From Methylococcaceae bacterium (GTDB lineage: Bacteria; Pseudomonadota; Gammaproteobacteria; Methylococcales; Methylococcaceae): 64,000 nucleotides of DNA. The notes beneath the pieces were generated by a model. That model ran no database searches. It was not told the DNA's origin and worked only from the letters and a program-made list of their open reading frames with translations. The number at the start of each line of letters is the position of its first letter. Positions within the stretch are counted from its first letter, which is position 1. Positions 40,502 to 60,639 of the stretch are shown here, one piece after another. The position numbers were made by a program, and so were the translations under genes. The stretch covers positions 253 through 64,252 of the forward strand of contig SCQD01000173.1 of the NCBI GenBank assembly GCA_004299145.1, given 5' to 3'.

Positions 40502-40507
40502 TTCATT

Positions 40508-41660: not shown

Positions 41661-41712
41661 CTGGAAGCCGGAGCTTCCAGAGCCGCATTCCCAAGCAGGA
41701 GCTTGGGAACGA
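41661..41712. repeat. REP pair, type A
   Basis: CTGGAAGCCGGAGCTTCCAG and ATTCCCAAGCAGGAGCTTGGGAAC. Confidence 0.8.
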
Positions 41713-41883
41713 GCACGGCTTCGCTTCATACCCCCACCCAGCACGCCCCTTGTCGCAAACGCACCGCGCTGTGTCGGCATTGCGCGTATTTGTCGCGTTG
41801 CATACACCGGAAAATCAGCAGCGGCAGCGACACAATGCTTGCCGTCTATTGATTTATATAGTTGAATAAATAACGTTAGGTTT

Positions 41884-41898
41884 TGGCACGCAAGCTGC
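41884..41898 (+). promoter_or_regulatory. candidate sigma54 (-24/-12) promoter
   Basis: TGGCAC-gcaag-CTGC against the consensus TGGCAC-N5-TTGC (one mismatch). About 86 nt upstream of ATG 41984. Confidence 0.3.
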
Positions 41899-41983
41899 CT
41901 GCCAAATATGCAAGGCAGCCGGCTTTGGCTTTGCTGTCTCCACGCTCCACGGCAATTTATTCAACTTTCGAAGGAAAGCTCCC

Positions 41984-44356: not shown

Positions 44357-44523
44357 GAGCGCAACGAGCGCACGAGCGTAGCGAGCAGCAGGCGCCGCTG
44401 TTGCTCCAGCAACAGCCCATCAGCACAAGCTGCTGCCGTAGCAGCAATCCCGCTCACTCGCAAAAATAAACTTCAACATAATCAACAGCATATGCATTGG
44501 CACAGGATTTGCCCATAGAGGTT

Positions 44524-46143
44524 ATGCAATCCATGAAGCCATTGACCCGCTACGCATTCATGACCGGCGCTTTGTTGCTTGCGGCCCCCGCGTGGCCGCA
44601 GGAGCAGCCCGCCGTGGCCGCGCCTCCACAATCCGACGCTTTACCCTCCTTCGATATGCTGGAAATACAAGTAGACGGCAACACCGTGCTGGAGCAAACC
44701 GTGGTCGAAAAAACCCTGTATCCGCTGCTCGGCACCGGCAAGACCGTCGGCGACGTCGAGCAGGCGCGGCAGACGCTGGAAGCCCTATATAAGGAAAAAG
44801 GCTATCCGACCGTGCTGGTGGACATTCCCGAACAGGACGTGGTGGCCGGCGTGGTGCGGCTGCAAGTGGTCGAAGGCGCCATCGAGCGCCTGAAAATCAC
44901 CGGCTCGCGCTATTTTCACCTGGACAAAATCCGCGAACAGGTGCCGGCGCTGGCGGCGGGCCAGGTGCCTTATATGCCGAAAGTGCAGGAACAGGTGGGC
45001 ATCCTGGGCCAGGAATCCGCCGACCGCCAGATTACGCCGATTTTCCGCGCCGGCGCTACGCCCGGCAAAACCGAGGTGGAACTGCGCGTCACCGACGAAC
45101 TGCCCTTGCACGGCAGCGTGGAAGTCAACGGCCGCAATTCGGAAAACACCAGCCGCACCCGCATGGTCAGCGCCGTGCGCTACGACAATCTGTGGCAGCG
45201 CTTCCACAGCGCATCGCTGCAATTCCAGGTGGCGCCGGAAAATGACGACGAAGTGGAAGTCTGGTCCGGCACTTATGTGCTGCCTACCGGCTGGGCGGAT
45301 ACCCGCCTGGCGTTGTACGGCATCGGCATCAGTTCCAATACCCAAATGGGCACCAGCATCGGCGGCCTGTCGGTGGTCGGCACCGGCTCGATTTACGGCG
45401 CGCGCCTGATCAAACCGTTGAGCGGCGGCGAAATTTACAACCACAGCCTGACGCTGGGCATCGATTACAAAAGCTTCAATCAGGGCGTCACCCAGCAAGG
45501 CCAGGATCAACAAACCTCGCCGGTCAGCTATGCCCCCTGGCAGATCGGCTACGACGGCAGCTGGCGCGCCGCGGGCGCGCTGACCTCGTTCAGCGCGGCG
45601 CTGCATTTCTCCGTCGACGGCCTGGGCAGCGACCAGCAGGAATTCGAAAACCGCCGTTTCAAAGCCAGGGCCGGTTATGCCTATCTCAGCGGCGAACTGA
45701 AGCACTGGCATGAACTGCCGTGGGACATGCGGCTGGCGGCGCGCGCCGCCGGCCAGATCAGCGCATCGCCGCTGATCAGCAACGAACAGTTCGCCGTCGG
45801 CGGACCGCAGAGCGTGCGCGGCTACCATCAGACGCAGCAACTGGGCGATAACGGCGTCAATGCCTCGCTGGAACTGCAAAGCCCGTCGTTCCAGCCGCAA
45901 GACTGGGATTTTTTGCAGAACCTGAAAGCGCACGTGTTTTTCGATTACGCCTATTTGTGGATACAGGACGCCTTGCCGCGCAACCCGGAGCACTACCGCC
46001 TGGCCGGCGCCGGCGCGGGTTTGAGGATGCAACTGTTCAAGCACTGGCAGGGGGAGTTCGACTGGGCTTATCCGCTGTACGCGCAGAGCAGCGTCGCCGC
46101 CGGCGAGCAGCGCGTGGATTTTCGGGTGGCTTATGAGTTTTAA
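44524..46143 (+). CDS. TpsB (ShlB/FhaC/HecB-family) outer-membrane transporter of the two-partner secretion system
   Basis: Signal peptide (KPLTRYAFMTGALLLAAPAWPQE). POTRA-like LEIQVDGNTVL. Beta-barrel ending in RVAYEF. Start is ATG 44524 or 44533 (the ORF track uses TTG 44497). Confidence 0.85.
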   Translation: MQSMKPLTRYAFMTGALLLAAPAWPQEQPAVAAPPQSDALPSFDMLEIQVDGNTVLEQTVVEKTLYPLLGTGKTVGDVEQARQTLEALYKEKGYPTVLVDIPEQDVVAGVVRLQVVEGAIERLKITGSRYFHLDKIREQVPALAAGQVPYMPKVQEQVGILGQESADRQITPIFRAGATPGKTEVELRVTDELPLHGSVEVNGRNSENTSRTRMVSAVRYDNLWQRFHSASLQFQVAPENDDEVEVWSGTYVLPTGWADTRLALYGIGISSNTQMGTSIGGLSVVGTGSIYGARLIKPLSGGEIYNHSLTLGIDYKSFNQGVTQQGQDQQTSPVSYAPWQIGYDGSWRAAGALTSFSAALHFSVDGLGSDQQEFENRRFKARAGYAYLSGELKHWHELPWDMRLAARAAGQISASPLISNEQFAVGGPQSVRGYHQTQQLGDNGVNASLELQSPSFQPQDWDFLQNLKAHVFFDYAYLWIQDALPRNPEHYRLAGAGAGLRMQLFKHWQGEFDWAYPLYAQSSVAAGEQRVDFRVAYEF

Positions 46144-46163
46144 CTTTTCGCGGCGGCTTGCAT

Positions 46164-46475
46164 CGTTCCCACGCTCTGCGTGGGAAAGCCGCCGCGCAGC
46201 GGAATTACTAAGGCTTCTGGAATGCATCCATGGGACGCTCCGCGTCCCGAATGGCGACATCGACCGGGATGGCGATAACACGCCGGAACGGGTTTGTAAC
46301 CCGTTTCCAGAAGCCTTAGTGTTTCCGCGAGAACGCGGCGGCTTTCGTAACGTTTTTAACGCCGGTGTTGCTGTTGCATCAGGTTTTATACAGGTAAAGG
46401 AAGGGTCCCCGACCCACCTAGCTATACGGGACGCGGAGCGTCCCGGGCTGCGTTCCCACGCGGAGCGTGGGAACG
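46164..46475. repeat. composite REP array between tpsB and tpsA
   Basis: Hairpins CGTTCCCACGCTCTGCGTGGGAA, GGGACGCTCCGCGTCCC, GGAACGGGTTTGTAACCCGTTTCC, GGGACGCGGAGCGTCCC and CGTTCCCACGCGGAGCGTGGGAACG. Also a long-range inverted repeat AAGGCTTCTGGAA...TTCCAGAAGCCTT. Confidence 0.85.
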
Positions 46476-46480
46476 ATGCA

Positions 46481-49400
46481 ATGACGGGCTTACTGGCGCA
46501 AACCATCCGCGCCATCATCGCCGGTAGCGTCGCGATGGGTGCCGGCGTATCGCCGGCCTACGCCGAACTGCCGGTGCCGCTCACCCCCGTCACCCTGTCG
46601 AAAACCCCCGTCGACATCGCGACCCAGGGCCAGGCGACGGCGGCCATCGCCGGCCATGCCATGACCATCAAACAGCTCAGCGACAAAACCACGCTGGATT
46701 GGCAGCGCTTCAATATCGGCGCCGGCAACAGCGTGCGCTTCGAGCAGCCTTCCTCTTCCTCGGTCGCGCTCAACAACATCCATCAGGCCGACCCCAGCCG
46801 CATCCTCGGCACGCTGACCGCCAACGGCCAGGTCTATCTGGTCAACCAGAACGGCTTTGTGTTCGGCAAGGATTCCCAGGTCAACGTCAACGCGCTGGTC
46901 GCCACCACGCTGGGCATCAGCGACACCGTGTTCCAGAACGGCATCACCCAAGCGTTCGACCTGGACGGCTCCGCCGCGCTGCAAGGCAGCGGCGAGGTCT
47001 ATCTCAAAGATAACAACGGCGCGTACCTGCTGGACGGCCAGGGCCAAAAAATCAAAATCCAGATTCTGCTGGAAAACGGCGCCGGCATCCGCAGCAACGC
47101 TCCCGGCGGCCGCGTCATCCTCGCCGCGCCGGTCATCGACAACGCCGGGGACATCAGCACGCCGGATGGTCAAACGATACTGGCGGCGGCCAAGGACAAG
47201 GTATATTTGCAGGAAGCCGGCGCCGATTCCGGCATACGCGGCCTGCTGGTGGAAGTCGGCAGCGGCGGCGCAGTGAACAACGTCGGCAAAGTGCTGGCCG
47301 AGCGCGGCAACGCCAGCCTGCTGGGCTTTGCCGTCAATCAGCGCGGCCTGGTGTCGGCGACCACCTCGGTCAGCCTCAACGGCTCGGTACGGCTGCTGGC
47401 GCGCGAAGGCATACAAGACCCTTCCGGCAGCGGCGGCAAACTGCTGCCCGCCGCCACCGTGCGCGCCGAGGCGCTGGACGACGGCCTGGGCGGCAAAGCC
47501 GGCGTGCACCTGGCCGGCGGCAGCCTGACCCAGGTCGGGCTGGACGCCGATAAAACCGCCACCGCCATCGACGCCCAGACGCAAAACCGCTCGCACGTCG
47601 AAATCAGCGGCCACGACGTGACGGTGCAGGCCGGCGCCACCATACAGGCGCAATCCGGCAATATCGACATCGCCGCCGTCGACGATCCCACCGACCCCGG
47701 CATCAAAGGCGATGCGCGCGTGGTGCTGGAAGCGGGCAGCCGCATCGACGCCGCCGGCGTGAAAAACCTCAGCCTGCCGGTGCAGCGCAACGTCGTTCAA
47801 GTGGAATTGCGTGCCAACGAACTGCGCGACGCACCGGCGCAGCGCGGCGGCGTGCTGTATGGACAAACGGTGGCGGTGGACCTGCGCGAGGCCAAACTGG
47901 CTTACGACGCCGACAGCGGCGCGCTGACCAGCGCCGGCATTCCCGTGGCCGACATCAAAGGCGCGGTGGACCGCATCGCCCGCAATATCGACGAGCGCAG
48001 CACCAGCGGCGGCACGGTGACGCTCAAATCCAGCGGCGACGTGGTCACGCAGTCCGGCAGCGTCATCGACATTTCCGGCGGCTCCATCGCCTATCGGAGC
48101 GGCACCATTGCCACCACCCAACTGGTGGCCGATGGCCAGGTGTTCGACATCGCCCACGCCGATCCCAACCGGCATTACGACGCCATCCTGGGCCAGGCGC
48201 AAGAAACGCATCCGCACTGGGGCATCACCGAGAACTGGACCATCCCCGGTCTGGCGCTGCAACGCTTTGAACCCGGCTATCTCGAAGGCAAGGCCGGCGG
48301 CACGCTGCACATCGCCGCCTACCAGGCCTGGCTGGACGGCGCGGTGGACGGCGGCACCGTGGCCGGTCCCTTGCAGCGCACGGCCGACAGCCGCGCCGCC
48401 GGCAGCACCTGGGTGCTCGATTTAAACAACAACAACCTGCTGGGCAAGCAGGATGTGGTATTCAGGCAGAACCCTCACCCCAGCCCTTTCCCGGCGGAGG
48501 GGGACTGGAGCGAGGGTTCTGCGGAAACAGCGCCGCTGACTATTGACGCCGGCTGGTTCAAACGCTCCGGCATCAGCCACGTCGAACTCAAAACCAACGG
48601 CAGCGTCAGCCTGCTGAGTGGGGCGCGCCTGGAGTTGCCGGACAACGGCAGCCTGAACCTGGCGGCAGCCGGCTTCGATATTCAGGGCGCCATCGTGGCG
48701 CCGTCCGGCACAGTGACGCTGCAACCGGTCAGCGCCGCCGACACGCGGCTGCCCAGCCCGATCACGCTGGGCGCTACCACCCTGATCGACGTGGCGGGGC
48801 GTTGGGTGAATGATCTTTTGGGCAGTCAACAAGGTAACGCCGAACTATGGAGCGCGGCGGCAGAACGCAGTGGCGACGCCGCTTTGGATTTCGCAGCCAT
48901 GCGGTTTCCTACTGGCCCACAGTCCTGGATTGATTCACAACCGGCGCTGGTTCAACAGACCTCCTCCGCTACGAAAGCCATAGCGCCGTCGCGCTATCGC
49001 TTGCCGGCGCACTCCATAGCCGACCACGGCGGTGAGGTCACCCTGGTGACCGAACAAGGCGATTTGCAGTTGGACCAAGGCAGCCGCATCGACGTCAGCG
49101 GCGGCGCCTGGCTGGACGTCGACGCCAGGCTGCACGCCGGCCAGGCCGGCGCCATCCAGCTGACCGCCGCCACGCACGACGGCGGCGGCGCGCCGTCCAG
49201 CCTGATCCTGGACGGCGCGCTGGCGGGCTGGGGGCTGACCCAGGGCGGCAGCCTCAGCCTGGACACCAGCGCCGTGGTGATCAGCGAGACGCCTCCCGCC
49301 AATTCCGTAGGGTACGCGGTGCGTACCTTCGACGACGGCGAACGGTACGCACAGCGTACCCTACAACTCACCCCGGACTTTTTCCGGCAAGGCGGTTTTG

Positions 49401-52400
49401 CTGATTACCGCCTGACCTCCAACCGCTACGGCCTGACGCTGGCCGACAATACCGCGCTGACCCTGCGCCAGCAAAACCTGCAACTGAGCGGCGCGGCGGC
49501 GCAGCAAGCCGGCGGCGTGCGCTTGCTGGACTTCAGCACGCCGGTCACTTTGCCGGACGCCGTGCGCAATCCGGTCAACCTCCAGCTGTCCCTGAGCCAA
49601 TTGCTGGCGCAGGACCGCGAGCAAAGTCTGACGATAGGCCTCAGCGCGCTGATTCAAACCGATGCCGACGGCGCGGTGCAACTGGACTCCGATACCTCGA
49701 TTCAGGTGGACGGCACGATAGTCGCGCCGGGCGGCAACATCACCCTCAACATCAATACCCCCAGCGCCGGCGACAAAGGTTACTTCGCTACCCAGGGCAT
49801 CCAGCTGGGCGCGGCCAGCCGCCTGCTGGCGCCGGGCGCTTTCAAGCCGACCTTGAACGAGGCCGGCCTGAAAACCGGCGAGGTGCTGTCCGGCGGCAAC
49901 GTGACGCTGACCGCCAGGCGCGGTTACATCGTCAGCAGCCCCGGCTCGCTGATCGACGTTTCCGGCACCGCGGCATCCCTGGACATTCAATACAGCGCCG
50001 CCGCCGGCCTGCCGGTCGTCAGGCAGCAAATCGTCTCCTCCGGCGGCAACATCACGCTGCGCGCCGGTGAAGGCATGCTGGCCGAAGGCAGCCTGCTGGC
50101 CAAGGGCGGCGACGGCGCCGCCGGCGGTGCGCTGTCGGTCGAACTGAACCGCAACTTGCGCAACAAGCCGCTGATTCCGCTCAGCGACGGTCTGTTCCCG
50201 GACGATGTCGACGCCGCGTTGCCGCGCAGCATCGTGATCAGCGACACGGACAGCCATCCGGCTTCCTCGCCTTCCAGCGGTATGGCCTGGTTCAACAGCG
50301 CACAACTGAACGACGCCGGTTTCGACTCATTGCGCTTCAAAACCGACGTGCTGGGTGCCGACGGCACCTACGCCGGCAATATTCAATTCAAAGGCAACGT
50401 GCAATTGAGCGCGCCACGGCAGATCGTGCTGGATACGCCGCAGCTGAAAACGGCGGGCGGCATCATCGGCCTGCATACCGATTATGCCGCGTTGGGTTCC
50501 AGCGGCAGCCGCATCGATACCGACCTGGGCGACGGCAGCTTTTCCAGCACGCTGGCCCCGGCCCCCAAAACCGGCTCCGGCAGTTTCAGCGTCAGCGCGC
50601 AAGGCATCGATCTGATCGGCGGCTTGAGCTTCAACGGCTTCGATAAAGTCCACCTGAACAGCCAGGGCGATGTGCGCACCATCGGCATCCGCGTTCGCTC
50701 CGACACCAAGGATTATCTGGGTCAGTTGAAACTGGCCGGCGACTTGACGATCCAGGCCAGCCAGGTCTATCCGGCCACGCTCAGCGATTACCGCATCAAC
50801 CTGAGCGGCGATCAGGCAACGCTGACGCTGTCGAACAGCGGCGCGGCACCGTCGCCGGTGTATTCCGCCGCCGGCAAACTGACGCTCAGCGCAGCCGACA
50901 TCCAGCAAAGCGGCGTGTTGAAAGCGCCGTTCGGTACGCTGGTGTTGGACGCGGCCAGGCAGCTGACGCTGGCCCCCGGCAGCCTGACCTCGGTATCCGG
51001 CGCCGGCCTGACCGTGCTGTTCGGCCAGGGCTCGGGCGGCATGAACTGGCTGTATCCGCTGGACAGCACCGGCAACACCAATCTCGCCATCGATCACCCG
51101 CCGGAAAAACATATCAGCCTGACCGGCAAAAACATCGCCTTGCAGGACGGCGCCAAAGTCGAGCTGTCCGGCGGCGGCGATCTGTACGCCTATGAATTCA
51201 TCGCCGGCCCCGGCGGCTCGGTCGACGTGCTCGATCCCAGTGCGGCAGGCTACACGCCCAAATACGCCGTGCTGCCGACGCTGAACCACGCGCTGACGCC
51301 TTACGATCCCAAAGAATTCGCCGCGGCGGGGCTCCAGGTGGGCGACAGCGTTTACCTCAGCAGCGGTTCAGCGCTGGCGGCCGGCTGGTACACGCTGCTG
51401 CCGGCGCACTACGCGCTGCTGCCGGGGGCTTACTTGCTGACGCCGCAGGCGGACAGCCGCGACCGGCTGCCCGGCCAGGCCAGCACCGACCTGCTGGGCG
51501 CCACCCTCATCGCGGGCCGTTACGGCGCCGCCGGCACGGCAACCGGCGATGGCCGCTGGCAAGGCTTTGCCGTGGAACCCGGTGCCGTGGCGCGGACCCG
51601 TGCGCAGTACACGGACTATCTGGCGAACCGCTTTTTCGCCGAGCAAGCGGCAGCCGGCGGCGGCGTAAGCGCGCGGGCTTTGCCGCAAGACGCCGGCAGC
51701 CTGGCGCTCAGCGCGCAGACCGGTTTAACGCTGGGCGCCGAACTGGCGGCGGCTCCCGCCGGCGGCGGCTTGGGGGGACAGGTCGACATCAGCGCCACCC
51801 ACTTGGCGATTATCGGGCGGCGAGAGGATGATGAAGCGGCGGCTGGCACGGTCTACCTGCCGGCGGACGCGCTGAACCAGCTCAATGCCCCCAGCCTGTT
51901 GCTGGGCGGCGTGCGCAGCCAAAGCGCGAACGGCCGGCGCGTAACGGTGGCGGCGCAAACGCTGACCATCGCCGGCAACGCGGCATTGCGCGGCGCTGAA
52001 ATCCTGCTGGCCGCACAAAACACGCTGAAGCTGGAATCCGGCGCGCTGGTGAGCAGCACCGGCAAAAACGGCGGCGGCGGCGTCGATTTACAGGTAGCCA
52101 ACCAGGGGCAAAACAGCGGTGACGGCGTGCTGCTGCGCGTGTCCGCCTCCGGCCAGGCCGACATCGACCGTGTTGGGCGCGTCACCGGCAAAACCGGCAC
52201 GCTGATCGTCGAAAGCGGCGCGCGGCTGGCATCGGACAACTCGATGCTGTTGGACGCCACGCAGAATACGGTATTCGACGGCGCCATCGACATGCGGGGC
52301 GGCTCGCTGGCGCTCAGGGCCGGCAAGATCAGCCTGGGCGATGCGCCCAAAGGCACGACCGGCCTGGTGCTGTCTTCCGCCCATTTCGACCTGGACGAAT

Positions 52401-55400
52401 TGCAGCTGAGCAGTACCGGCAACCTGGACATATACGGCAACGTCGCCGTCGATGCCGGCCTGCTCGCCGTCGACGCCGCGGCCATCGACGGCCATGGCAA
52501 CGCCGATGCCACGCTGACGGCGGAGGTTTTGCGGTTGGGGTATAGCGGTGATGGTACCCGTTCCTCGTTCCCAAGCTCCAGCTTGGAAACGAGGACTGGG
52601 AAGCTCCGGCTTCCCGAACCCGATCCGGAGCTTGGGAACCAGCGGAACTTTCGTTTTCAGACACAAGGGCTTTCAACTCTCGAACAGCGCTTTATGTTTT
52701 TGCAACCCGGAGGGTTGCCAGCCATTAGCCGGGGGTTGAGCGGAGCGACACCCCCGGTAACGGACATCGATATGAAGCCCACGACCCTGGAGGGGTCGCA
52801 GCGGGCCACGGAGCGCGAATCTCTGCGACCCCTCCAGGGTCGCATGGATCAAACCACCATCCCATCCGGGGGTGTCGCTGGCGCTCAACCCCCGGCTAAT
52901 AGCTTGGAACCCTCCGGGTTCCCTCGTTTCCGCTCGTTCCCAAGCTCCAGCTTGGGAACGAGGACTGGGAAGCTCTGGCTTCCCGAGTTCGAACAGACGG
53001 GAAACCGGAGCTTCCCGGATCGGGTTCCCAAGCCGGAGCTTGGGAACCAGCGGAACCAACTGCTGCTACACGCCGACCAGATACAACTGGCCAGCGGCGA
53101 TTACGCGATCACCGGCTTCGGCCAGGTCGATCTGCGCGCCACCACGGCCATTAAAGGTCTGGGCCAGACGCTGGACCCGCTCACCGGCCAGGCCAGTCTG
53201 GCCGCCGCCGGCAACTTGAGCGTTGCGGGCGATCTGCACTTGCAAGCCGGCCACTACACCGGCGCTGCCGGCGCCACCACCCGCATCGACGCCGGCGAGC
53301 ATGCGGTGACGATCACCTCCCCCGGCAGCGCCGACCCGGCCTGGAGCAGCGGGTTGGGCGCCAGCTTGAGCATCAGCGGCGCAAGCATCGCCGGTAGCGG
53401 CCGCTTCGATCTGCCGTCCGGCAGGCTGGAACTTACCGCCACGCAAGGCGATGTCGCGCTGAACAGCGGCACCCATATTGACGTGTCGGGCCGGGCACTG
53501 ACCTTTGCCGAGCTGACGCGCTATGCACCCGCCGGCAGCGTGTCGCTGGCGGCGCCGCGCGGCAATGTCGATCTCGCCGCCGGCGCCGGCATCGATCTGA
53601 GCAGCGCGGCCAGCGACGCACTGCCCTTCGGCGACGCCGGGTTGCTGAAGATCAGCGCGCCCCAGGGCCGGTTTTTGTGGAACGGAACGATTACCGCGCT
53701 GGGCGGCGTTGCGGGTGATTCGGCTGATTCCGGCGTGATGCCTCGTGGTGAGGAGACCGGGGGCAAAGATATGGCTGAAAACAACCTGTTCGACGGGGCA
53801 ACACCGCCACAAGGCCAATTCCAGCTCGACGTCGACAACTTCGGCGCGGGCGGCTTTTCGGCGCTCAACCGCAAGCTGGCGGCGGCGGGTTTCAGCGCGG
53901 CGCTGACGCTGCAACAGCGCAGCGGCGACATCGCCATTACCGCCGACGACACGGTCACCGCTCACCAGTTGGTATTACGTGCCGATCAAGGCGGGGTGAC
54001 GATAGACGGCGGCATCGACGCGAGCGGCGCCCGGGCCGGCGAGGTGTCGATCCATGGCGGCAACGGCATCACGCTGGGCGCCACCGGCAAGATCGCCGCC
54101 AACGCCACGGCGGCCGGTGCCGACGGCGGCAGCGTGATGCTGGATGCTGTGCCTGGGAGCGCGGCCATCCTGGCCGCATCCTGGGGCCGCGGCCATCTTG
54201 GCCGCAGTGCGGGCGGGACGCCCGCGCTCCCAGGGTTAGACCTCTCCCACACCGGCACCGTCATCGACGTCTCCGGCGGCCAGGGCGGCGCCGGCGGCTC
54301 CGTCCATCTGCGCGCCGGCCGCGACGACGCGCAGCACAGCGTCGCCGTCACCGACATAAACACCCGCATCGTCGGCGCCGCTCCCGAACGCACCGTGTTG
54401 GAAGCCGTCCGCGTTTACGACGGTCAGTCGGTCATCGACGCGGACGCCATCGCCGCCTGGCAGTCGGACACCAGCCGTTTCATGGCGACCGCAATCAGCC
54501 CGGCCAATGCGTCCGGCGCGGCCATCCCACTGCTGCCCGGCCTCGAAATCCGCGGCAACGCCGATCTGACCTTGGCCAGCCGCTGGGATTTGCTGAGCTG
54601 GCGCTATAACGATGCCGAGGGCGCGGCAACCTTGCCGGGCTTTTTGACGCTGCGAGCGAACGGCGATTTGAACGTCAAAGCCACGCTGAGCGACGCCTTC
54701 GCCACCGCGCTGATTCCCGGCCAGACCTCGACCCAGTTGCAGGATCTGCTGCAACCCGGACGCTCGTGGAGCTATCAATTGATCGCCGGCGGCGACCTCA
54801 CGCTGGCCCATAGCTACAGCGCGCCCGATCCTTTCGGTTATGGGCAAAAAGTCGACAGCCAAGTGATGGTCCGTACCGGCACCGGCGCCATCGCACTACA
54901 AGCGGGCGGCGATATTCAGTTTGCCGGCAACCGTTATGACCCTAACGCGGCGGCAGCGGTGTACACCATGGGCAGGCCCGCCGACTACACCCGCGGCCAA
55001 TTGCTGAGCGGCGCGGTGCCGGGCGTACCGGCCAGGCTGGACGGCGAAACCGACGCCGCCTATCTGAACCGCCTCGATCCCGCACAGATGAATACGCTGC
55101 TGCGCTACGGCTATTTCAACGAAACCCTGCTGGGCCTGGCGTTCAGCGTGGCGGAATATCCGACCCAGGGCGGCGCCGTTAAGCTCACTGCCGGCGGCAA
55201 TATCACCGGCATCGCCACCGGTCAGGAAATCAGCGACTGGCAGGTGCGCAGCGGCGTCATCGACGTCAACTTCCGGCCTACCGCCTGGGGCATCAACGTC
55301 AGCGGCGACCGCAGCGGCGCCGTCAATAATATTTCCGCCAAGGGCCTGCGCTATTTCAACCAGAACGTCGGCGCGCTGGGCGGCGGCGACGTCACGGTCA

Positions 55401-57826
55401 CGGCGGGCGGCGACGTGCGCGATCTGTCGGTGATGCTGCCGACCAGCGGCAAGCCGTTCGGCACGCTGAGCGAGGCGGCCAACCAGTGGACGCAAAACCA
55501 TACCCTCGTCGACGGCGGCGGCGATTTACGCGTGGCGGCGGGCAACGACATCGTCGGCGGCGAATATTACGTCGGCCTCGGCAGCGGTGAGCTGCGAGCC
55601 GGCGGCAGCATCGGCAAGTCGGCCAACGGCCTGGGCGCGCTGCTGGAACTGGGCGATGCGCGCTTTACGCTGACGGCGCGGCAGGACGTGGTGGTCGGCT
55701 CGGCATTCAACCCCACCGTGCTGCGGCAAAGCAGCGTACTGCCGCTGGGCGCCGGCGGCGATTCGCGCTTTTTCACTTACGGCGCCAACAGCGCCGTCGC
55801 GCTGAACGCCGTCGCCGGCAACGTCGTGCTGCAAAACGACGTCGATGCCATCCGCATGGCCAAAAACATCGACACCAGCCTGGCGTCGGGTTTCGAATAC
55901 GCCGTTTATCCCGGCACGTTGCAAGCGGCGGCTTACTCGGGCGATATCCGCATCGACCGCTCGCTGACGCTGTTTCCCTCGGCGGCGGGCGAGCTGAGCC
56001 TGCTGGCGAACCGCAACATCGGCGCTGACAGCGACGCCGCGCAGTTGATCAACATCAATATGTCCGACGCCGATCCGGCCTTCCTGCCCGGCGTGAACAC
56101 CCCGGCGCAGCAATTGGAAGGCAGCCTGAGCGACGGGCTGATAAGAACGCGGGAACGGCTGGACCCGTCCACGCCGGACGCCACGCTGATCCATGCCGCC
56201 GTGCCGTTGCACGGCAACCCCTGGGAGCGCGGGCGTCCCGCCCGCCCGGCGGCCAAGATGGCCGCGACCCCAGGGAGCGGGCAAGATGCCCGCGCTCCCA
56301 GGGGAGTCACCACCAAACCCACCATCATCGCCAAACTAGGCGACATCGCATTCAGCTCCAGCGCGGAAGTGACGTTTTTCCTGCCGCAGGCCGCCGAGTT
56401 CCGCGCCGGCCGGGACGTGGTCAATTTGAGCTTGTCCGGGCAGAACCTGTCGGTCGACGACGTGACGCGGATTACGGCGGGCCGCGACATCAGCTTCGAC
56501 GCGCTGATCGACGGCGACGGCATCGTGCAGGCCAACGACAAGCAGATCGAACTGGGCGGGCCGGGGCAATTGCAGATTCAGGCCGGCCGCAACGTCAGCC
56601 TGGGTGGTTCGGCCGGCATCAATAGCATAGGCAACACCAAAAACCTGGCTTTGCCGGACCAGGGCGGCGCGGGCATAGATCTATTGGTGGGCAGCACCCA
56701 GCCGCCGGATTACGCCGGATTCATCGACCAATACTTCACCCTCGGCAGCGACTATCTCGACCGGCTGAGCTTCAGCGACGACCACGGCGTGGATAGGCTG
56801 GCCGGTTTGGCGCCGGCGCAAAAACTGGCCTGGCTCCAGCAATTGCCGGCGGAAGGCCAGCAAAAATTCTTGCTGGACGCGCTGTTCAACGAAATCAAGC
56901 TGGCCTCGGCCCATGCCGCCGCGGCGCCGGAAGCTGAGCGCAAAGCTTTCTATCAGCAGGGATTCGATGCGATTGCGGCGTTGTTTCCCAACCTTACGCC
57001 CCCTCTCCCCGCGGGAGAGGGTTGGGGTGAGGGCATTCAAACGCTCGACAGTTACCAAGGCGACCTCTCCCTGGTATTCAGCCAGATCAAAACGCTGGCG
57101 GGCGGGGCTATTCATCTGGCCGTGCCGGGTGGAGCGGTCAACGTCGGTCTGGCCGGCAAAGTCGGCGGCATCCAGAAAGGCGCCGACCAGCTCGGCATCG
57201 TCGCCCAGCAGGCCGGCGACGTGGCTGCGTTCAGCCGGGACGATTTCAACGTCAACCAGTCGCGCGTGTTCACCATGGGCGGCGGCGACATCGCCATCTG
57301 GTCCTCGCAAGGCAATATCGACGCCGGCAAAGGCGCCAAGTCGGCGATTTCCGCGCCCGCGCCGATCACCAGCGTCGACGCCAAGGGCAACATCGTCACG
57401 ATTTTTCCGCCCATCGTGTCGGGCAGCGGCATCCAGACCATCAATCCGCAGGATAAAACCCGGCGCCAGGGCAACGTCTATCTGGCGGCGCCGGTCGGCA
57501 TCGTCGACGCCGGTGAAGCCGGCATCAGCGGCGGGCGCATCGTCATCGCCGCCACCGCCGTGGTCGGTGCTTCCAACATCTCGGCTTCCGGCGGTTCGGT
57601 CGGCGTGCCAGCGGCGGTAGCTCCGCCGGTGGTACCCGGCGGCGCGGCCGCCGCCGCCACCAGCGCGGCCAAATCGGCCATGCAGAGTGGCGAAGACGAC
57701 GAGAAAAAGGCCCAGAGCGGTGAAGCGAAAAAAGCCACGGTCAGCCTGCTCAGCGCCGACGTCGTGGGCTACGGCGATTGCAGCGTCGCCGATGTGCGCG
57801 AGGAGAAGCCGGGATGTGGGGGGTGA
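46481..57826 (+). CDS. giant TpsA exoprotein (filamentous-haemagglutinin family, ~3,781 aa)
   Basis: Signal peptide MTGLLAQTIRAIIAGSVAMGAGVSPAYA. TPS domain (LDWQRFNIGAGNSVRFEQP...ALNNIH...ANGQVYLVNQNGFVFG). Long Gly/Ala/Asp-rich beta-helix repeats. C-terminal GGDIAIWSSQGNIDAGKGAKSAISAP module typical of the large FhaB-like family. The ORF-track start at 46133 runs through a REP array, so ATG 46481 is preferred. Confidence 0.9.
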   Translation: MTGLLAQTIRAIIAGSVAMGAGVSPAYAELPVPLTPVTLSKTPVDIATQGQATAAIAGHAMTIKQLSDKTTLDWQRFNIGAGNSVRFEQPSSSSVALNNIHQADPSRILGTLTANGQVYLVNQNGFVFGKDSQVNVNALVATTLGISDTVFQNGITQAFDLDGSAALQGSGEVYLKDNNGAYLLDGQGQKIKIQILLENGAGIRSNAPGGRVILAAPVIDNAGDISTPDGQTILAAAKDKVYLQEAGADSGIRGLLVEVGSGGAVNNVGKVLAERGNASLLGFAVNQRGLVSATTSVSLNGSVRLLAREGIQDPSGSGGKLLPAATVRAEALDDGLGGKAGVHLAGGSLTQVGLDADKTATAIDAQTQNRSHVEISGHDVTVQAGATIQAQSGNIDIAAVDDPTDPGIKGDARVVLEAGSRIDAAGVKNLSLPVQRNVVQVELRANELRDAPAQRGGVLYGQTVAVDLREAKLAYDADSGALTSAGIPVADIKGAVDRIARNIDERSTSGGTVTLKSSGDVVTQSGSVIDISGGSIAYRSGTIATTQLVADGQVFDIAHADPNRHYDAILGQAQETHPHWGITENWTIPGLALQRFEPGYLEGKAGGTLHIAAYQAWLDGAVDGGTVAGPLQRTADSRAAGSTWVLDLNNNNLLGKQDVVFRQNPHPSPFPAEGDWSEGSAETAPLTIDAGWFKRSGISHVELKTNGSVSLLSGARLELPDNGSLNLAAAGFDIQGAIVAPSGTVTLQPVSAADTRLPSPITLGATTLIDVAGRWVNDLLGSQQGNAELWSAAAERSGDAALDFAAMRFPTGPQSWIDSQPALVQQTSSATKAIAPSRYRLPAHSIADHGGEVTLVTEQGDLQLDQGSRIDVSGGAWLDVDARLHAGQAGAIQLTAATHDGGGAPSSLILDGALAGWGLTQGGSLSLDTSAVVISETPPANSVGYAVRTFDDGERYAQRTLQLTPDFFRQGGFADYRLTSNRYGLTLADNTALTLRQQNLQLSGAAAQQAGGVRLLDFSTPVTLPDAVRNPVNLQLSLSQLLAQDREQSLTIGLSALIQTDADGAVQLDSDTSIQVDGTIVAPGGNITLNINTPSAGDKGYFATQGIQLGAASRLLAPGAFKPTLNEAGLKTGEVLSGGNVTLTARRGYIVSSPGSLIDVSGTAASLDIQYSAAAGLPVVRQQIVSSGGNITLRAGEGMLAEGSLLAKGGDGAAGGALSVELNRNLRNKPLIPLSDGLFPDDVDAALPRSIVISDTDSHPASSPSSGMAWFNSAQLNDAGFDSLRFKTDVLGADGTYAGNIQFKGNVQLSAPRQIVLDTPQLKTAGGIIGLHTDYAALGSSGSRIDTDLGDGSFSSTLAPAPKTGSGSFSVSAQGIDLIGGLSFNGFDKVHLNSQGDVRTIGIRVRSDTKDYLGQLKLAGDLTIQASQVYPATLSDYRINLSGDQATLTLSNSGAAPSPVYSAAGKLTLSAADIQQSGVLKAPFGTLVLDAARQLTLAPGSLTSVSGAGLTVLFGQGSGGMNWLYPLDSTGNTNLAIDHPPEKHISLTGKNIALQDGAKVELSGGGDLYAYEFIAGPGGSVDVLDPSAAGYTPKYAVLPTLNHALTPYDPKEFAAAGLQVGDSVYLSSGSALAAGWYTLLPAHYALLPGAYLLTPQADSRDRLPGQASTDLLGATLIAGRYGAAGTATGDGRWQGFAVEPGAVARTRAQYTDYLANRFFAEQAAAGGGVSARALPQDAGSLALSAQTGLTLGAELAAAPAGGGLGGQVDISATHLAIIGRREDDEAAAGTVYLPADALNQLNAPSLLLGGVRSQSANGRRVTVAAQTLTIAGNAALRGAEILLAAQNTLKLESGALVSSTGKNGGGGVDLQVANQGQNSGDGVLLRVSASGQADIDRVGRVTGKTGTLIVESGARLASDNSMLLDATQNTVFDGAIDMRGGSLALRAGKISLGDAPKGTTGLVLSSAHFDLDELQLSSTGNLDIYGNVAVDAGLLAVDAAAIDGHGNADATLTAEVLRLGYSGDGTRSSFPSSSLETRTGKLRLPEPDPELGNQRNFRFQTQGLSTLEQRFMFLQPGGLPAISRGLSGATPPVTDIDMKPTTLEGSQRATERESLRPLQGRMDQTTIPSGGVAGAQPPANSLEPSGFPRFRSFPSSSLGTRTGKLWLPEFEQTGNRSFPDRVPKPELGNQRNQLLLHADQIQLASGDYAITGFGQVDLRATTAIKGLGQTLDPLTGQASLAAAGNLSVAGDLHLQAGHYTGAAGATTRIDAGEHAVTITSPGSADPAWSSGLGASLSISGASIAGSGRFDLPSGRLELTATQGDVALNSGTHIDVSGRALTFAELTRYAPAGSVSLAAPRGNVDLAAGAGIDLSSAASDALPFGDAGLLKISAPQGRFLWNGTITALGGVAGDSADSGVMPRGEETGGKDMAENNLFDGATPPQGQFQLDVDNFGAGGFSALNRKLAAAGFSAALTLQQRSGDIAITADDTVTAHQLVLRADQGGVTIDGGIDASGARAGEVSIHGGNGITLGATGKIAANATAAGADGGSVMLDAVPGSAAILAASWGRGHLGRSAGGTPALPGLDLSHTGTVIDVSGGQGGAGGSVHLRAGRDDAQHSVAVTDINTRIVGAAPERTVLEAVRVYDGQSVIDADAIAAWQSDTSRFMATAISPANASGAAIPLLPGLEIRGNADLTLASRWDLLSWRYNDAEGAATLPGFLTLRANGDLNVKATLSDAFATALIPGQTSTQLQDLLQPGRSWSYQLIAGGDLTLAHSYSAPDPFGYGQKVDSQVMVRTGTGAIALQAGGDIQFAGNRYDPNAAAAVYTMGRPADYTRGQLLSGAVPGVPARLDGETDAAYLNRLDPAQMNTLLRYGYFNETLLGLAFSVAEYPTQGGAVKLTAGGNITGIATGQEISDWQVRSGVIDVNFRPTAWGINVSGDRSGAVNNISAKGLRYFNQNVGALGGGDVTVTAGGDVRDLSVMLPTSGKPFGTLSEAANQWTQNHTLVDGGGDLRVAAGNDIVGGEYYVGLGSGELRAGGSIGKSANGLGALLELGDARFTLTARQDVVVGSAFNPTVLRQSSVLPLGAGGDSRFFTYGANSAVALNAVAGNVVLQNDVDAIRMAKNIDTSLASGFEYAVYPGTLQAAAYSGDIRIDRSLTLFPSAAGELSLLANRNIGADSDAAQLININMSDADPAFLPGVNTPAQQLEGSLSDGLIRTRERLDPSTPDATLIHAAVPLHGNPWERGRPARPAAKMAATPGSGQDARAPRGVTTKPTIIAKLGDIAFSSSAEVTFFLPQAAEFRAGRDVVNLSLSGQNLSVDDVTRITAGRDISFDALIDGDGIVQANDKQIELGGPGQLQIQAGRNVSLGGSAGINSIGNTKNLALPDQGGAGIDLLVGSTQPPDYAGFIDQYFTLGSDYLDRLSFSDDHGVDRLAGLAPAQKLAWLQQLPAEGQQKFLLDALFNEIKLASAHAAAAPEAERKAFYQQGFDAIAALFPNLTPPLPAGEGWGEGIQTLDSYQGDLSLVFSQIKTLAGGAIHLAVPGGAVNVGLAGKVGGIQKGADQLGIVAQQAGDVAAFSRDDFNVNQSRVFTMGGGDIAIWSSQGNIDAGKGAKSAISAPAPITSVDAKGNIVTIFPPIVSGSGIQTINPQDKTRRQGNVYLAAPVGIVDAGEAGISGGRIVIAATAVVGASNISASGGSVGVPAAVAPPVVPGGAAAAATSAAKSAMQSGEDDEKKAQSGEAKKATVSLLSADVVGYGDCSVADVREEKPGCGG
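48471..48517. repeat. REP, type D, inside tpsA
   Basis: ACCCTCACCCCAGCCCTTTCCCGGCGGAGGGGGACTGGAGCGAGGGT. It is the reverse complement of the copy at 56998-57034. Confidence 0.6.
48845..49019. mobile_element. MITE-like element with ~48-nt terminal inverted repeats, inside tpsA
   Basis: Left end CTATGGAGCGCGGCGGCAGAACGCAGTGGCGACGCCGCTTTGGATTTCG. The reverse complement of the right end is CTATGGAGTGCGCCGGCAAGCGATAGCGCGACGGCGCTATGGCTTTCG. A solo end (CTATGGAGTGCG) lies at 57829, just after the tpsA stop. Confidence 0.65.
49307..49364. repeat. 58-nt REP, type C, inside tpsA
   Basis: Near-identical to the intergenic copies at 8736 and 17753. Translated as VGYAVRTFDDGERYAQRTLQ. Confidence 0.8.
52555..53060. 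repeat. ~0.5-kb composite REP/MITE block inside tpsA
   Basis: Type A hairpin pairs at both ends (52566-52640 and 52935-53050) flank a long nested palindrome (GCAACCCGGAGGGTTGC; CCGGGGGTTGAGCGGAGCGACACCCCCGG / CCGGGGGTGTCGCTGGCGCTCAACCCCCGG; CGACCCTGGAGGGGTCGCAG / CTGCGACCCCTCCAGGGTCG). Confidence 0.85.
54152..54235. repeat. REP, type B, inside tpsA
   Basis: CCTGGGAGCGCGGCCATCCTGGCCGC...GGGCGGGACGCCCGCGCTCCCAGGG. Confidence 0.75.
56218..56304. repeat. REP, type B, inside tpsA
   Basis: CCCCTGGGAGCGCGGGCGTCCCGCCCGCC...GGGCAAGATGCCCGCGCTCCCAGGGG. Confidence 0.75.
56998..57034. repeat. REP, type D, inside tpsA
   Basis: GCCCCCTCTCCCCGCGGGAGAGGGTTGGGGTGAGGGC, containing the palindrome CCCTCTCCC-CGCG-GGAGAGGG. 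Confidence 0.6.
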
Positions 57827-57828: not shown

Positions 57829-58072
57829 ATGGAGTGCGTTGGCTGGTTCCCAAGCTCCTGCTTGGGAACCCGGCCCAGGAAGCTCCGGCTTCCTGGCCGC
57901 GAAACTGGCGCGGACACAGCGCGGGACGGGGTTTAAACCCCGTCCCAAACGTTTGTATACCCAAGGGCCGTGGATACCCCCGAAGTCGGGAAGCCGGAGC
58001 TTCCCCGTCCGCGCTCCAGAAGCCTTAACTATTCCGCTTCGCGGCGGCTTTCCCAAGCTGGAGCTTGGGAAC
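57829..58072. repeat. REP array between tpsA and the exbB-like gene
   Basis: Solo MITE end, GGTTCCCAAGCTCCTGCTTGGGAACC, CCAGGAAGCTCCGGCTTCCTGG, GGGACGGGGTTTAAACCCCGTCCC, GGGAAGCCGGAGCTTCCCC and TTCCCAAGCTGGAGCTTGGGAA. Confidence 0.85.
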
Positions 58073-58112
58073 GAGCAAAACGAGCAAATGAGCAAACACA
58101 CGATTAAAACCA

Positions 58113-60017
58113 ATGAATAAAACCACACACACCGCTCTCAAACTCGGCCTGCTGCTGTTGGTCATGCCGGCCATCGCCCTGGCCTGGTGGAACGGCGACT
58201 GGTCGTCGCGCAAATCCTTGACCGTCGACGCCGCCGCTTCCGGCGCGGACGTGCAGGCCACACTCAGCGACGTGCCGCTGCTGCTGCGCCTGCATACCGG
58301 CAACTTCGGTTTCTTCGCCGAACTCGCCGACAACGGCAAAGACCTGCGCTTTATGCTGGACGATAAAACCGCGCTCAAGCACCACGTCGAAAAAATCGAT
58401 GCGCCGGCGGAGCTGGGCCTGGTCTGGGTCAAGCTGCCGACCGTGCGCGGCGGCGTCAGTACCGATGCTTTTTCGATGTACTACGGCAACGCCGGCGTCG
58501 CCGACGCTTCCGACGCCAAAGGCATTTACGACGCCGATCAGGCGCTGGTGTTTCATTTCAATGAAGGCGAAACCCTACCGCAGGACGCCACCGCTTATGG
58601 CTTGCACGCCGCCGCTTCCAAAGCCGCCCTGGAGCCGGTCGGCTGGATAGGCGCGGCGGCCCGGTTCGACGGCCAGGGCGGCATCCGCGTCGATGCCGCG
58701 CCGGCTCTGGCCATCGACCCCGAACGCGGCTGGACTTTCAGCGCCTGGGCCAAAATCGACCAGGCCCAGCCCGGCGCCGTGCTGGTGCAGGCCAAAGCCG
58801 GCACCGGCTGGCTGGAACTGGTGGTGCAGGACGCCGGACTGAGCGCGCGTTATCAGGACGTGGACGGCACGGAGGTGCAAACCGCGTCGACCCCCATCAC
58901 CCTGGGCCAATGGCAGCACCTCGCCGTGGTCGCCGAGAAAAACAGCCTGGCCGTGTACCTGAACGGTCAGCGCGTGGCCGAAAGCGCCATCCACCTGAGC
59001 GCATTGCAGCCGGCGCTGATGATAGGCAGCGCCGACGTCGATCATGGCTTTATCGGCCTGCTGGATGAAGTGCAGATCGCCAAACAGGCGCGCAGCGCCG
59101 ACTGGATCAAGTTCCAGTTCCGCAGCCAAAGCCCGGATTTCAACGTCGTCAATTTCGGCCAGGACGAGTCCGGCGGCAGCGACGGCCCCAATTATTTTGT
59201 CATCATCCTGCAAAGCCTGACCGTGGACGGCTGGGTGGTGATCGCGCTGTGCGGCGTGATGTTCGTCATCAGCTCGCTGGTGATGATAGGCAAAGGCCTG
59301 ATGCTGAAGCAGGCGCGCCGCGACAACCAGGCGTTTCTGCAACAGTACCGCAACGTCGATGCCTCGGACCCGGGCGCGTTGGATCGGGAGGAAAGCGCGG
59401 AAGAGCAGGAAATCGGCGATTCCGAGTTTCTCGCCGCCGTGGTCGGCAAGCACGATCATTTTCAGGGCTCGCCGATCTATCACGTTTACCACGCCGGCGT
59501 GCACGAGCTGAAGCAAACCTTCGGCGACAGCAGCATCAACGCCATCCTCACCCCGGAAGCGCTGAACCTGCTGCGCGCGCGGCTGGATGCCGCCGTGGTG
59601 CGCGAAACTCAGAAGCTCAATAAAAACATGGTGTTGCTGACCATCGCCATTTCCGGCGGCCCGTTCCTGGGCCTGCTGGGCACGGTGATGGGCGTGATGA
59701 TCACGTTCGCCGTGATCGCCGCCACCGGCGACGTCAACATCAACTCGATAGCGCCCGGCATTTCCGGCGCGCTGGCCGCCACCGTCGCCGGGCTGGCGGT
59801 CGCCATCCCGGCCTTGTTCGCCTACAACTACCTGCTTACGCAGATCAAGGACCTGACCGCCGACATGCACGTGTTCACCGACGAGTTTCTGGCGCTGATC
59901 TCCAAGCGCGTCGCCGACCGCCGGCGCGGCAATAATGGTTTGACCGTGGCGTTTCCCGACGCATTCATCGATCTGATCGCCGAACGTATTGCCAGGCAGC
60001 AGGAGACGCGCTCATGA
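58113..60017 (+). CDS. DUF2341 + LamG-like periplasmic domain fused to a MotA/TolQ/ExbB proton channel
   Basis: WWNGDWSSRKSLTVD...DLRFMLDDKT...LVWVKLP...MYYGNAG is the DUF2341 hallmark. A LamG-like middle region follows. The C-terminal third has three TM helices with the ExbB-type segment GGPFLGLLGTVMGVM...APGISGALAATVAGLAVAIPALFAYNYL. Confidence 0.85.
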   Translation: MNKTTHTALKLGLLLLVMPAIALAWWNGDWSSRKSLTVDAAASGADVQATLSDVPLLLRLHTGNFGFFAELADNGKDLRFMLDDKTALKHHVEKIDAPAELGLVWVKLPTVRGGVSTDAFSMYYGNAGVADASDAKGIYDADQALVFHFNEGETLPQDATAYGLHAAASKAALEPVGWIGAAARFDGQGGIRVDAAPALAIDPERGWTFSAWAKIDQAQPGAVLVQAKAGTGWLELVVQDAGLSARYQDVDGTEVQTASTPITLGQWQHLAVVAEKNSLAVYLNGQRVAESAIHLSALQPALMIGSADVDHGFIGLLDEVQIAKQARSADWIKFQFRSQSPDFNVVNFGQDESGGSDGPNYFVIILQSLTVDGWVVIALCGVMFVISSLVMIGKGLMLKQARRDNQAFLQQYRNVDASDPGALDREESAEEQEIGDSEFLAAVVGKHDHFQGSPIYHVYHAGVHELKQTFGDSSINAILTPEALNLLRARLDAAVVRETQKLNKNMVLLTIAISGGPFLGLLGTVMGVMITFAVIAATGDVNINSIAPGISGALAATVAGLAVAIPALFAYNYLLTQIKDLTADMHVFTDEFLALISKRVADRRRGNNGLTVAFPDAFIDLIAERIARQQETRS

Positions 60018-60418
60018 AAGTCGGCGAAGAAGGCAAGGTTTACGACGACATCAACATCACGCCGATGCTGGACGTGGCTTACGTGCTGCTGCTGATCTTC
60101 ATCATCATGACCACCGCGACGGTGCAGGGCATTACCGTGAACCTGCCCAAGGCCAGCAGCACCCCGGCCTTGTCCAAGCCCAAGACCAAGGCGATTTCCA
60201 TCACCAAGGACGGCGCGGTGTACCTGGACACTTATCCGGTGTCGCTGGCGGACCTGGAGACCCGGCTGGGCCAATACAAGGCCGCCACGCCCGACCTGCC
60301 GGTGGTGGTCAAGGCCGACGCCGCCGTGAGCTACGAAAAAGTCGTCGAAGTGCTGGACGTCATCGCCCGCCTGGAAATCAGCCAGTTGGGGCTGGTGACG
60401 CAGAAGTTGGTGAAGTAA
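60014..60418 (+). CDS. exbD: ExbD/TolR-family protein
   Basis: INITPMLDVAYVLLLIFIIMT, followed by a periplasmic domain. 4-nt overlap with the upstream gene. Confidence 0.9.
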   Translation: MKVGEEGKVYDDINITPMLDVAYVLLLIFIIMTTATVQGITVNLPKASSTPALSKPKTKAISITKDGAVYLDTYPVSLADLETRLGQYKAATPDLPVVVKADAAVSYEKVVEVLDVIARLEISQLGLVTQKLVK

Positions 60419-60442
60419 GTGCCGAGGGAGGTGATGTCCCGC

Positions 60443-60628
60443 TGGTTCCCAAGCTCCAGCTTCCGCTGGTTCCCAAGCTCCAGCTTGGGAACCCGGTCTT
60501 GGAAGCTCCGGCTTCCTGTCTGTCCGCCCGTTCGGGCCCGGGAAGCTGGAGCTTGGGAACGAGGAAACCGCCGTTACTTATGCGGCGCGGCGCGCCGAGG
60601 ATGCATTCCCACGCGGCGCGTGGGAACG
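60443..60628. repeat. REP array between exbD and the tonB-like gene
   Basis: Tandem GGTTCCCAAGCTCCAGCTT units, GGAAGCTCCGGCTTCC, GGGAAGCTGGAGCTTGGGAAC and ATTCCCACGCGGCGCGTGGGAAC. Confidence 0.85.
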
Positions 60629-60639
60629 AGAAAACGGTG

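Follow-up and report, generated by a model that had tools for sequence, protein, structure and literature searches.

The 64-kb window analysed here, a 64,000-nucleotide (nt) stretch of a Methylococcaceae contig, contains tpsA, a gene for a giant two-partner secretion (TPS) exoprotein whose reading frame is interspersed with small palindromic repeats. tpsA (46481..57826, + strand) encodes 3781 amino acids (aa) and lies downstream of tpsB (44497..46143, + strand), which encodes its Omp85-type transporter partner (Pfam ShlB, POTRA_2 and Omp85). An open reading frame (ORF) scan found a single unbroken + strand frame across 46133-57826, bearing out the initial annotation, which had described one open tpsA frame beginning at ATG 46481. 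A random run of 3781 codons with this composition would contain ~87 stop codons on average; the tpsA frame has none. The ATG at 46481 is the true start and opens a signal-peptide-like N-terminus, MTGLLAQTIRAIIAGSVAMGAGVSPAYA. The 116 codons upstream of it (46133-46480, 348 nt) are intergenic repeat DNA open in the tpsA frame; the mechanically called ORF begins 348 nt early, at 46133, because the repeats between tpsB and tpsA are stop-free in that frame. Repeat finding placed two type E hairpins (46165-46187 and 46452-46474) and repeat D16 (46305-46346) in this intergenic region (46165..46474). Directly 3' of the tpsA stop codon, repeat finding and BLAST identified an intergenic array of type A repeats (57842..58076). 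An exbB-like gene, exbD, tonB and a porin gene are the downstream neighbours.

The tpsA product carries a TPS secretion domain (PF05860, E = 9.7e-22, aa 54-299) and a C-terminal DUF3739 domain (aa 3601-3711), both from Pfam. An AlphaFold model of aa 1-1100, built with 43 homologues, is a beta-helix consisting almost entirely of beta structure, with a mean predicted local distance difference test score (pLDDT) of 87.3 and a predicted template modelling score (pTM) of 0.86. Its best Protein Data Bank matches in Foldseek are the secretion domains of EtpA, HxuA, HMW1 and FHA. From its domains, the adjacent tpsB and the predicted fold, the product of 46481-57826 is a predicted TpsA; like EtpA, HMW1, HxuA and FHA, it combines a TPS domain with a long right-handed beta-helix and a neighbouring TpsB gene. 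Genome and metagenome scans yielded 44 orthologous loci (designated by L numbers below) from Methylobacter, Methylovulum, Methylocucumis, Methylococcus and other Methylococcales.

Repeat families were defined by repeat finding and by BLAST of each suspect segment against the window, and copy numbers and transposase partners were read within the window only. Family A consists of the hairpin GTTCCCAAGC-N4-GCTTGGGAAC beside GGGAAGC-N4-GCTTCCC, often arranged as inverted doublets. Its intergenic copies lie at 30.5, 41.7, 44.05, 44.3, 57.8, 58.0, 60.4, 61.3 and 61.6 kb, and three units lie inside tpsA, at 52567, 52936 and 53024. Family E (GTTCCCACGC-N-GCGTGGGAAC) is a close variant of type A with intergenic copies at 43908, 46165, 46452 and 60605; by regular-expression count the window holds 17 type A/E hairpin units, of which 3 lie in tpsA. 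Type B occurs at 29029, 32600, 37830, 54152 and 56218, and its copies vary in length (35, 57, 84, 87 and 110 nt). Family C is a repetitive extragenic palindromic (REP) element of the GTAG-tagged kind, GTAGGGTACGC...GCGTACCCTAC, with intergenic copies at 8736 and 17753 and one copy in tpsA (49307-49364). The type C sequence opens with GTAG and closes with CTAC; plain inspection of types A, B and D showed no obvious tag. Family D (CCCTCTCCCC..GGGAGAGGGTTGGGGTGAGGG) lies in tpsA at 57000-57034 and, reversed, at 48472-48516, and has no intergenic copy in the window; a regular-expression scan of the related loci found it outside tpsA at L011 20362 and L041 19436.

The intragenic copies of types A, B and C are 86-96% identical to their intergenic paralogues in the window by BLAST. 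REP families fill all intergenic gaps around tpsA, and local repeat density is high from 41.6 to 63.6 kb. No RAYT (REP-associated tyrosine transposase) or other transposase domain was found among the 16 window ORFs scanned. At the palindromes, Rfam returned only sub-threshold matches, to eukaryotic microRNA hairpin models, which we rejected as generic hairpin hits; a repeat-encoded peptide used as a protein-database query gave zero candidates.

Palindromic elements were recovered by repeat finding, folding and arm pairing at every position where the initial annotation had placed one, and the odd peptides that it quoted are all present in the tpsA translation. Its statement that the same elements also occur between genes of the window holds for A, B and C. 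Copies of type D away from tpsA were seen only in related loci (L011 and L041), and two further elements, I1 and the centre of I3, have no intergenic copy in the window or the 44 related loci. We refer to the segments as I0 to I7 in their order along the gene. I0 (48472..48516, - strand) is a type D element in reverse orientation to I7 (fold z = -3.0; pLDDT <50 at aa 677-680). The palindrome noted previously at this site is thus real, and it sits in a length-variable loop and adds no net length relative to orthologues in the alignment.

I1 (48848..49016; fold z = -3.3; pLDDT <50 at aa 800-839) is a 169-nt MITE, a miniature inverted-repeat type of transposable element, whose terminal inverted repeats are long and imperfect. 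An 18-nt core of its termini is 89% complementary, pairing reaches ~50 nt, and the element has no coding capacity of its own. A TA dinucleotide stands on each side (48846-47 and 49017-18). I1 plus one TA amounts to 171 nt, or 57 codons, and its removal leaves an in-frame GAA CTA GCC containing CTAG; the orthologue L036 also has CTAG at the position matching the reconstructed site. TA and CTAG at I1 form what we take to be an IS630/Tc1-type target signature. A second copy of I1 was found neither in the window nor in the 44 related loci, a weak negative with the rest of the genome outside the search. I2 (49307..49364, + strand) is the 58-nt type C REP of tpsA (fold z = -6.9); its 21-nt arms are 95% complementary, and its identity with the intergenic copies (8736 and 17753) is 86.7-88.1%.

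I3 is the largest and most complex segment. On its left, a type A unit (52557..52648, + strand) comprises the hairpins GTTCCCAAGC..GCTTGGAAAC and GGGAAGC..GCTTCCC, and a 55-nt unique spacer separates this unit from a central 217-nt hairpin element (52704..52920) with 39-nt arms that are 92% complementary. On its right lies a type A REP doublet (52928..53055) in a REPIN-like layout, with 58-nt arms that are 84% complementary and 12 nt apart; this doublet matches intergenic copies (44052, 60461 and 61561) at 90-93% identity. The composite (52557-53056) is nested, and as a whole it folds with z = -17. What had been described as a 0.5-kb type A composite therefore has type A units at both ends, and its centre is a unique hairpin element of which a second copy is absent from the window and the 44 related loci.

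The remaining repeat elements are shorter. I5 (54152..54235, + strand; fold z = -5.1) is a type B element of 84 nt, or 28 codons, which replaces 9 orthologue residues (HRDDTGSGL) for a net gain of 19 aa. I6 (56218..56304, - strand; fold z = -9.2) is a type B element of 87 nt, or 29 codons, in the opposite orientation to I5. It is an exact 87-nt element bounded by inverted repeats, and its excision leaves HGKVTTKP, the same length as the orthologue sequence HEGDSSKP. I7 (57000..57034, + strand) is the type D element CCCTCTCCCCGCGGGAGAGGGTTGGGGTGAGGG, within an alignment-defined insertion at 56999-57040. Peptides spanning the junctions in the tpsA translation include ...GTRSSFPSSSLETR... and ...PLHGNPWER.... 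A lineage-specific 27-aa loop, I4 (53699..53779, + strand; LGGVAGDSADSGVMPRGEETGGKDMAE), was found by alignment. It was ruled out as an eighth repeat insertion, being neither palindromic (z = +0.29) nor matched by a paralogue; on inspection its GC content looks lower than that of the flanking sequence. We likewise rejected as an insertion the perfect 13-bp hairpin at 49188-49220, a palindrome due to chance or codon choice: it is conserved coding sequence (GGAPSSLILDGAL) in orthologues, and we used it as a negative control.

MAFFT alignments were made with 18, then 24, full-length orthologues (3274-3579 aa; 41-71% identity to the window protein), the nearest of which are ~70% identical along the aligned length of tpsA. 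The reading of the segments as insertions, made at first from the window alone, held up in this comparison: the inserted segments are missing from all 24 full-length orthologues. Residues present in the window protein only are 787-841 at I1 (55 aa), ~943-956 at I2 (13 aa), 2030-2187 at I3 (158 aa; 52568-53041), 2407-2433 at I4 (27 aa), 2558-2571 and 2581-2585 at I5 (14 + 5 aa), 3245-3273 at I6 (29 aa) and 3507-3520 at I7 (14 aa). Without the inserts, the window protein falls within the orthologue length range of 3274-3579 aa.

Repeat-derived DNA makes up ~955 nt, or 8.4%, of tpsA. In types A and B none of the six frames contains a stop, whether the copy is intergenic or intragenic, so for these types only a length divisible by three is informative. 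The earlier caveat that the repeats are stop-poor was correct in this respect, and the ORF list does hold spurious repeat read-throughs. I1 is open in only one of six frames, as is the whole I3 composite, and each is read in that frame; the I3 centre alone is open in two of six. If length modulo three were random, seven frame-preserving events would have a probability of (1/3)^7, ~5e-4. In our reading, the seven events reflect survivorship under purifying selection and not a property of the elements. The inserts still resemble non-coding DNA, because their GC content is flat across the three codon positions (0.66/0.62/0.69 vs 0.66/0.51/0.83 in the rest of tpsA), and their hairpins are retained (fold z -3 to -17). 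None of the intragenic hairpins has a T-tail. The window scan showed no enrichment of terminator-like sites (14 vs 10.6 ± 3 expected), and none lies at a REP hairpin; the sole such site inside an insert (48869-48883, in I1) is no more than chance would give. The terminator and promoter scan thus lends no weight to a terminator role for the intragenic REPs.

In the model of aa 1-1100, the only internal stretches with pLDDT <50 are aa 677-680, 800-839 and 942-945, coil excursions that match I0, I1 and I2. A second AlphaFold model, of aa 1901-2700, was built with one homologue and is weak (mean pLDDT 56). Its longest low-confidence stretches (100-291, 508-545 and 660-684 in segment numbering) cover I3, I4 and I5 between beta strands, and four shorter internal ones (329-342, 383-389, 478-484 and 715-723) lie outside any insert.

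Independent support for permissive loops comes from the orthologues, because these vary in length at the I2, I3 and I7 loops. The I2 loop (window-equivalent 49301-49375) holds SGQAPS-type tandem repeats of varying copy number in L002, L004 and L040 (4013-4117), and to judge from these sequences it is a hot spot for length change. At the I3 site L002 has a run of GT dipeptides, and at the I7 site L007 and L043 have 14-aa inserts. The tpsA of L002, a Methylobacter metagenome-assembled genome (MAG), also carries an in-frame REP of its own: a 73-nt GTAG element of the type C family (15233-15305; GTAGGGTACGCTGCGGGTACC...GGTACGCGCAGCGTACCCTAC; fold z = -6.8). It lies at a site different from those of the window inserts, equivalent to window residue 1789, and another copy of its 3' arm (21 nt, ending CCCTAC) occurs just upstream of the same tpsA, at L002 9962-9982. 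The Methylovulum-like loci L003 (20111-20182) and L043 (11591-11638) have in common an insert, PGNCSLHYSTS..., that is lineage-specific and lies near window residue 3662; this was rejected as a palindromic element, not being significantly palindromic.

Families A, C, D and E adjoin tpsA in several related loci. The type E hairpin, GTTCCCACGC-N4-GCGTGGGAAY, does so in L001 (10587-10684), L002 (20505), L003 (20556), L036 (1114-1248) and L041 (11966-12063), just 3' of the tpsA stop codon in L001, L002, L003 and L041 and upstream of tpsA in L036. Both the type E family and its place next to tpsA are conserved across Methylococcales. A, C, D and E are, on this sequence evidence, old Methylococcales repeat families, of which the window genome has far more inside tpsA.

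The explanation that we consider probable is that mobile repeats landed in permissive loops of tpsA and that purifying selection kept the events that preserved the frame and introduced no stop codon. tpsA would be an intact two-partner secretion exoprotein gene in a repeat-rich Methylococcales genome, into which small non-autonomous palindromic elements inserted at least seven times. One TA-flanked MITE, one nested hairpin element and members of three or four REP/REPIN families would make up the inserted set, the GTAG REPs presumably mobilised by a RAYT-type transposase and the I1 MITE by an IS630-like transposase. Purifying selection would have eliminated frame-breaking and stop-bearing insertions; the survivors would be those with a net length that is a multiple of three and an open read frame, in solvent-exposed loops between beta-helix rungs. 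The 12 to 158 extra residues, probably disordered, would be compatible with folding and TpsB-dependent export, the inserts neutral, and TpsA expressed and secreted. The initial annotation had offered an intact exoprotein whose beta-helix tolerates loops as one of its readings, and the absence of the inserts from orthologues, the match of low-pLDDT stretches to inserts, the length changes in orthologues and the 3781-codon frame all support it.

Several observations weigh against this explanation. I0 and I5 are not simple additions, since host codons are missing at both sites; in at least two events, it appears, host codons were lost or the loop was short before the element arrived. Neither I2 (58 nt) nor the L002 REP (73 nt) has by itself a length divisible by three, so that one has to postulate additional bases or small indels. 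I1 and the I3 centre are single-copy among the window and the 44 loci, and their mobility is deduced from shape only. Alignment gaps lower pLDDT by themselves, which makes the structural evidence for loops partly circular, supportive and not independent. Seven of the eight intragenic repeat loci of the window lie in tpsA, which accounts for 24% of the coding map (binomial P ~3e-4), but this test used a rough gene map and a single window and is confounded by the high repeat density at 41.6-63.6 kb. An 800-aa protein query from mid-gene gave one match, and an N-terminal query gave partial proteins only, at ≤72% identity. No relative with more than ~75% identity was present in the genome and metagenome collections scanned. 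Empty sites, target-site duplications, insertion ages and exact boundaries are therefore provisional.

A route without transposase insertion, in which hairpins led to template switching or the segments came from nearby intergenic repeats through recombination or gene conversion, would accommodate the replacement of host codons at I0 and I5, the loose lengths of REP copies (type B, 35-110 nt) and the lack of a transposase among the window ORFs scanned, and the closest type A paralogues do lie within ~10 kb (44052, 60461 and 61561). Yet I6 is a clean addition bounded by inverted repeats, the TA/CTAG context of I1 is typical of transposition, no homology between host flanks and repeat flanks was seen that could seed conversion, and five or six unrelated families are involved; we regard this route as unlikely. 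A selected role for the repeat-encoded loops, as a variable or functional adhesin surface for which tpsA is a preferred and useful landing pad, could explain why one surface protein has such a density of inserts, why they fall at exposed loops in the models, and why in-frame elements or tandem repeats were acquired independently by orthologues from other genera, in the same or other loops. The composition of the inserts speaks otherwise: they lack coding-type GC periodicity and keep near-intact hairpins, like the non-coding copies. Moreover, no insert is conserved in any orthologue, elements open in all six frames (A and B) need no selection for their peptide in order to be present, and the inserts in published precedents were considered neutral or mildly deleterious (PMC2229807, PMC3733652). 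Exaptation as surface-variable segments, which the initial annotation had raised, thus found no positive evidence in these flat-GC, hairpin-retaining, lineage-specific inserts, and seems distinctly improbable.

The same flat composition and well-preserved hairpins would suit young insertions in a gene that is no longer selected, with the frame intact only because decay is so recent, and a 158-aa insert might impair the protein. Against such decay stand the improbability of seven independent events all in frame, the placement of both stop-rich elements (I1 and the I3 composite) in their single open frame, terminal domains that are intact at ~70% identity to the nearest orthologues, and an intact partner gene, tpsB. 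The 11.3 kb contain no frameshift or stop codon, so this last option of the initial annotation is without evidence and, in our estimation, very improbable. That the segments are not insertions at all, but ancestral sequence lost in every other lineage or an assembly artefact, draws on the lack of a close relative in the genome and metagenome scans. It would require 24 orthologues of several genera to have lost the same segments, it conflicts with the 86-96% match to dispersed non-coding repeat families, and misassembly would not yield seven in-frame, stop-free junctions; this we consider hardly credible. Going beyond the insertion and purifying selection that we favour for the window gene, the seven elements here, the GTAG REP in the Methylobacter MAG and the insert shared by Methylovulum-like loci led us to consider that giant TpsA beta-helix proteins of Methylococcales may be recurrent REP/MITE landing pads. 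Independent in-frame captures in different genera would then provide new surface loops, and non-coding selfish repeats would regularly diversify the adhesin surface instead of being junk that is merely put up with, a generalization that is for now quite doubtful.

The nearest precedent is the Rickettsia palindromic element (RPE), described by Ogata et al. in 2000 and reviewed in PMC2229807, PMC10969869 and PMC3733652, where RPE inserts are reported to be fold-compatible and neutral or slightly harmful. PMC2229807 and PMC10969869 place RPEs in 19 or more Rickettsia protein genes and describe the gmk product, of R. conorii, as active. Like RPEs, the elements described here are small palindromic mobile repeats of several coexisting families, found between genes and in frame inside conserved genes. 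RPEs measure 105-146 bp and occur across numerous housekeeping genes in an obligate intracellular alphaproteobacterium with AT-rich DNA, whereas tpsA holds GC-rich REP/REPIN-type elements, seven in one giant exoprotein gene of a free-living-type gammaproteobacterium. Di Nocera et al. (2013) described GTAG/CGTC REPs inside genes of several phyla as singles, dimers and clusters encoding 20-82 aa, sometimes twice per ORF and enriched in DNA repair genes, and concluded that disrupted genes had been purged; Methylomonas methanica is in a supplementary genome list of that study (PMC3733652). Type C of tpsA shares their GTAG...CTAC tag. Unlike those cases, with one or two inserts per ORF, tpsA has seven elements from five or six families and a 158-aa composite. 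The supplements of PMC3733652 contain no haemagglutinin or adhesin case, and a literature search combining MITE, filamentous haemagglutinin and in-frame insertion found nothing.

Inverted REP doublets like those of REPINs are seen in I3 right (52928-53055) and in several intergenic type A pairs. REPINs are REP doublets that form hairpins; they are described as extragenic. Unlike REPINs, the tpsA repeat families have no RAYT gene that we could find in the window. REPINs and RAYTs are also discussed in PMC3733652. Among bacterial MITEs, ERIC, the 107-bp form of Correia and BRE are known fused in frame to ORFs (PMC2229807, PMC3184786). I1 resembles them in its terminal inverted repeats, long stem-loop and TA ends and in being translated in its only open frame, and differs in being single-copy in the window and the 44 related loci. 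Loop variation in the TpsA/FhaB family usually takes the form of gain or loss of repeat units or of tandem repeats, such as SGQAPS in L004 and L040. To our knowledge, dispersed non-coding REPs as a source of loops are not a described feature of this family.

tpsA is an extreme, unusually dense case of in-frame intragenic repeat insertion and not a new kind of event; reports of such insertions by REPs, RPEs and MITEs go back to 2000, and knowledge of the field is unchanged in that respect. What is unusual is the combination of seven elements in one ORF, five or six families and one nested insert of 158 residues. The gene offers a natural experiment in which a beta-helical exoprotein absorbs non-coding-derived sequence amounting to 8% of its length, up to 158 residues per site. 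The selection filter is visible in it, with stop-rich elements only in their single open frame and elements open in all frames present in both orientations. There is also a consequence for annotation. In the window genome, ORF callers over-extend genes through stop-free repeats, as with the 116 codons ahead of tpsA and the 441-aa tonB ORF described below, and repeat-derived peptides will contaminate protein databases.

The listed 441-aa tonB ORF (59989-61314) has a spurious 5' half. Its true content is exbD (60014-60418), intergenic type A/E repeats (60439-60633) and tonB from ~60660; the ORF is over-extended because the type A/E repeats are open in the tonB frame. A second window gene behaves like tpsA in having a repeat read in frame: the PMT_2/PMT glycosyltransferase-like ORF 28430-30493 (687 aa) has a perfect type B hairpin with a 16-bp stem (29029-29063), translated as LGARAGCPRSQ. 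The same ORF contains, at 29967-30008, a 90% copy of the repeat 46305-46346 from upstream of tpsA, and the 'MSKQTKHQ' that follows may begin a second gene; this 687-aa ORF may be two genes fused, or a read-through across a stop-free repeat. Directly upstream of tpsB, with repeat arrays between, a 629-aa ORF (41984-43873) has coding-type GC3 (0.80) and no Pfam match. Two low-GC islands, at window positions 1-4000 and 38000-42000 (41-46% vs ~62% elsewhere), were possibly acquired horizontally. An Xre/MbcA-type antitoxin gene (3513-4067) lies within the first island, and an AAA_21 ATPase gene (6771-7955) lies just past it.

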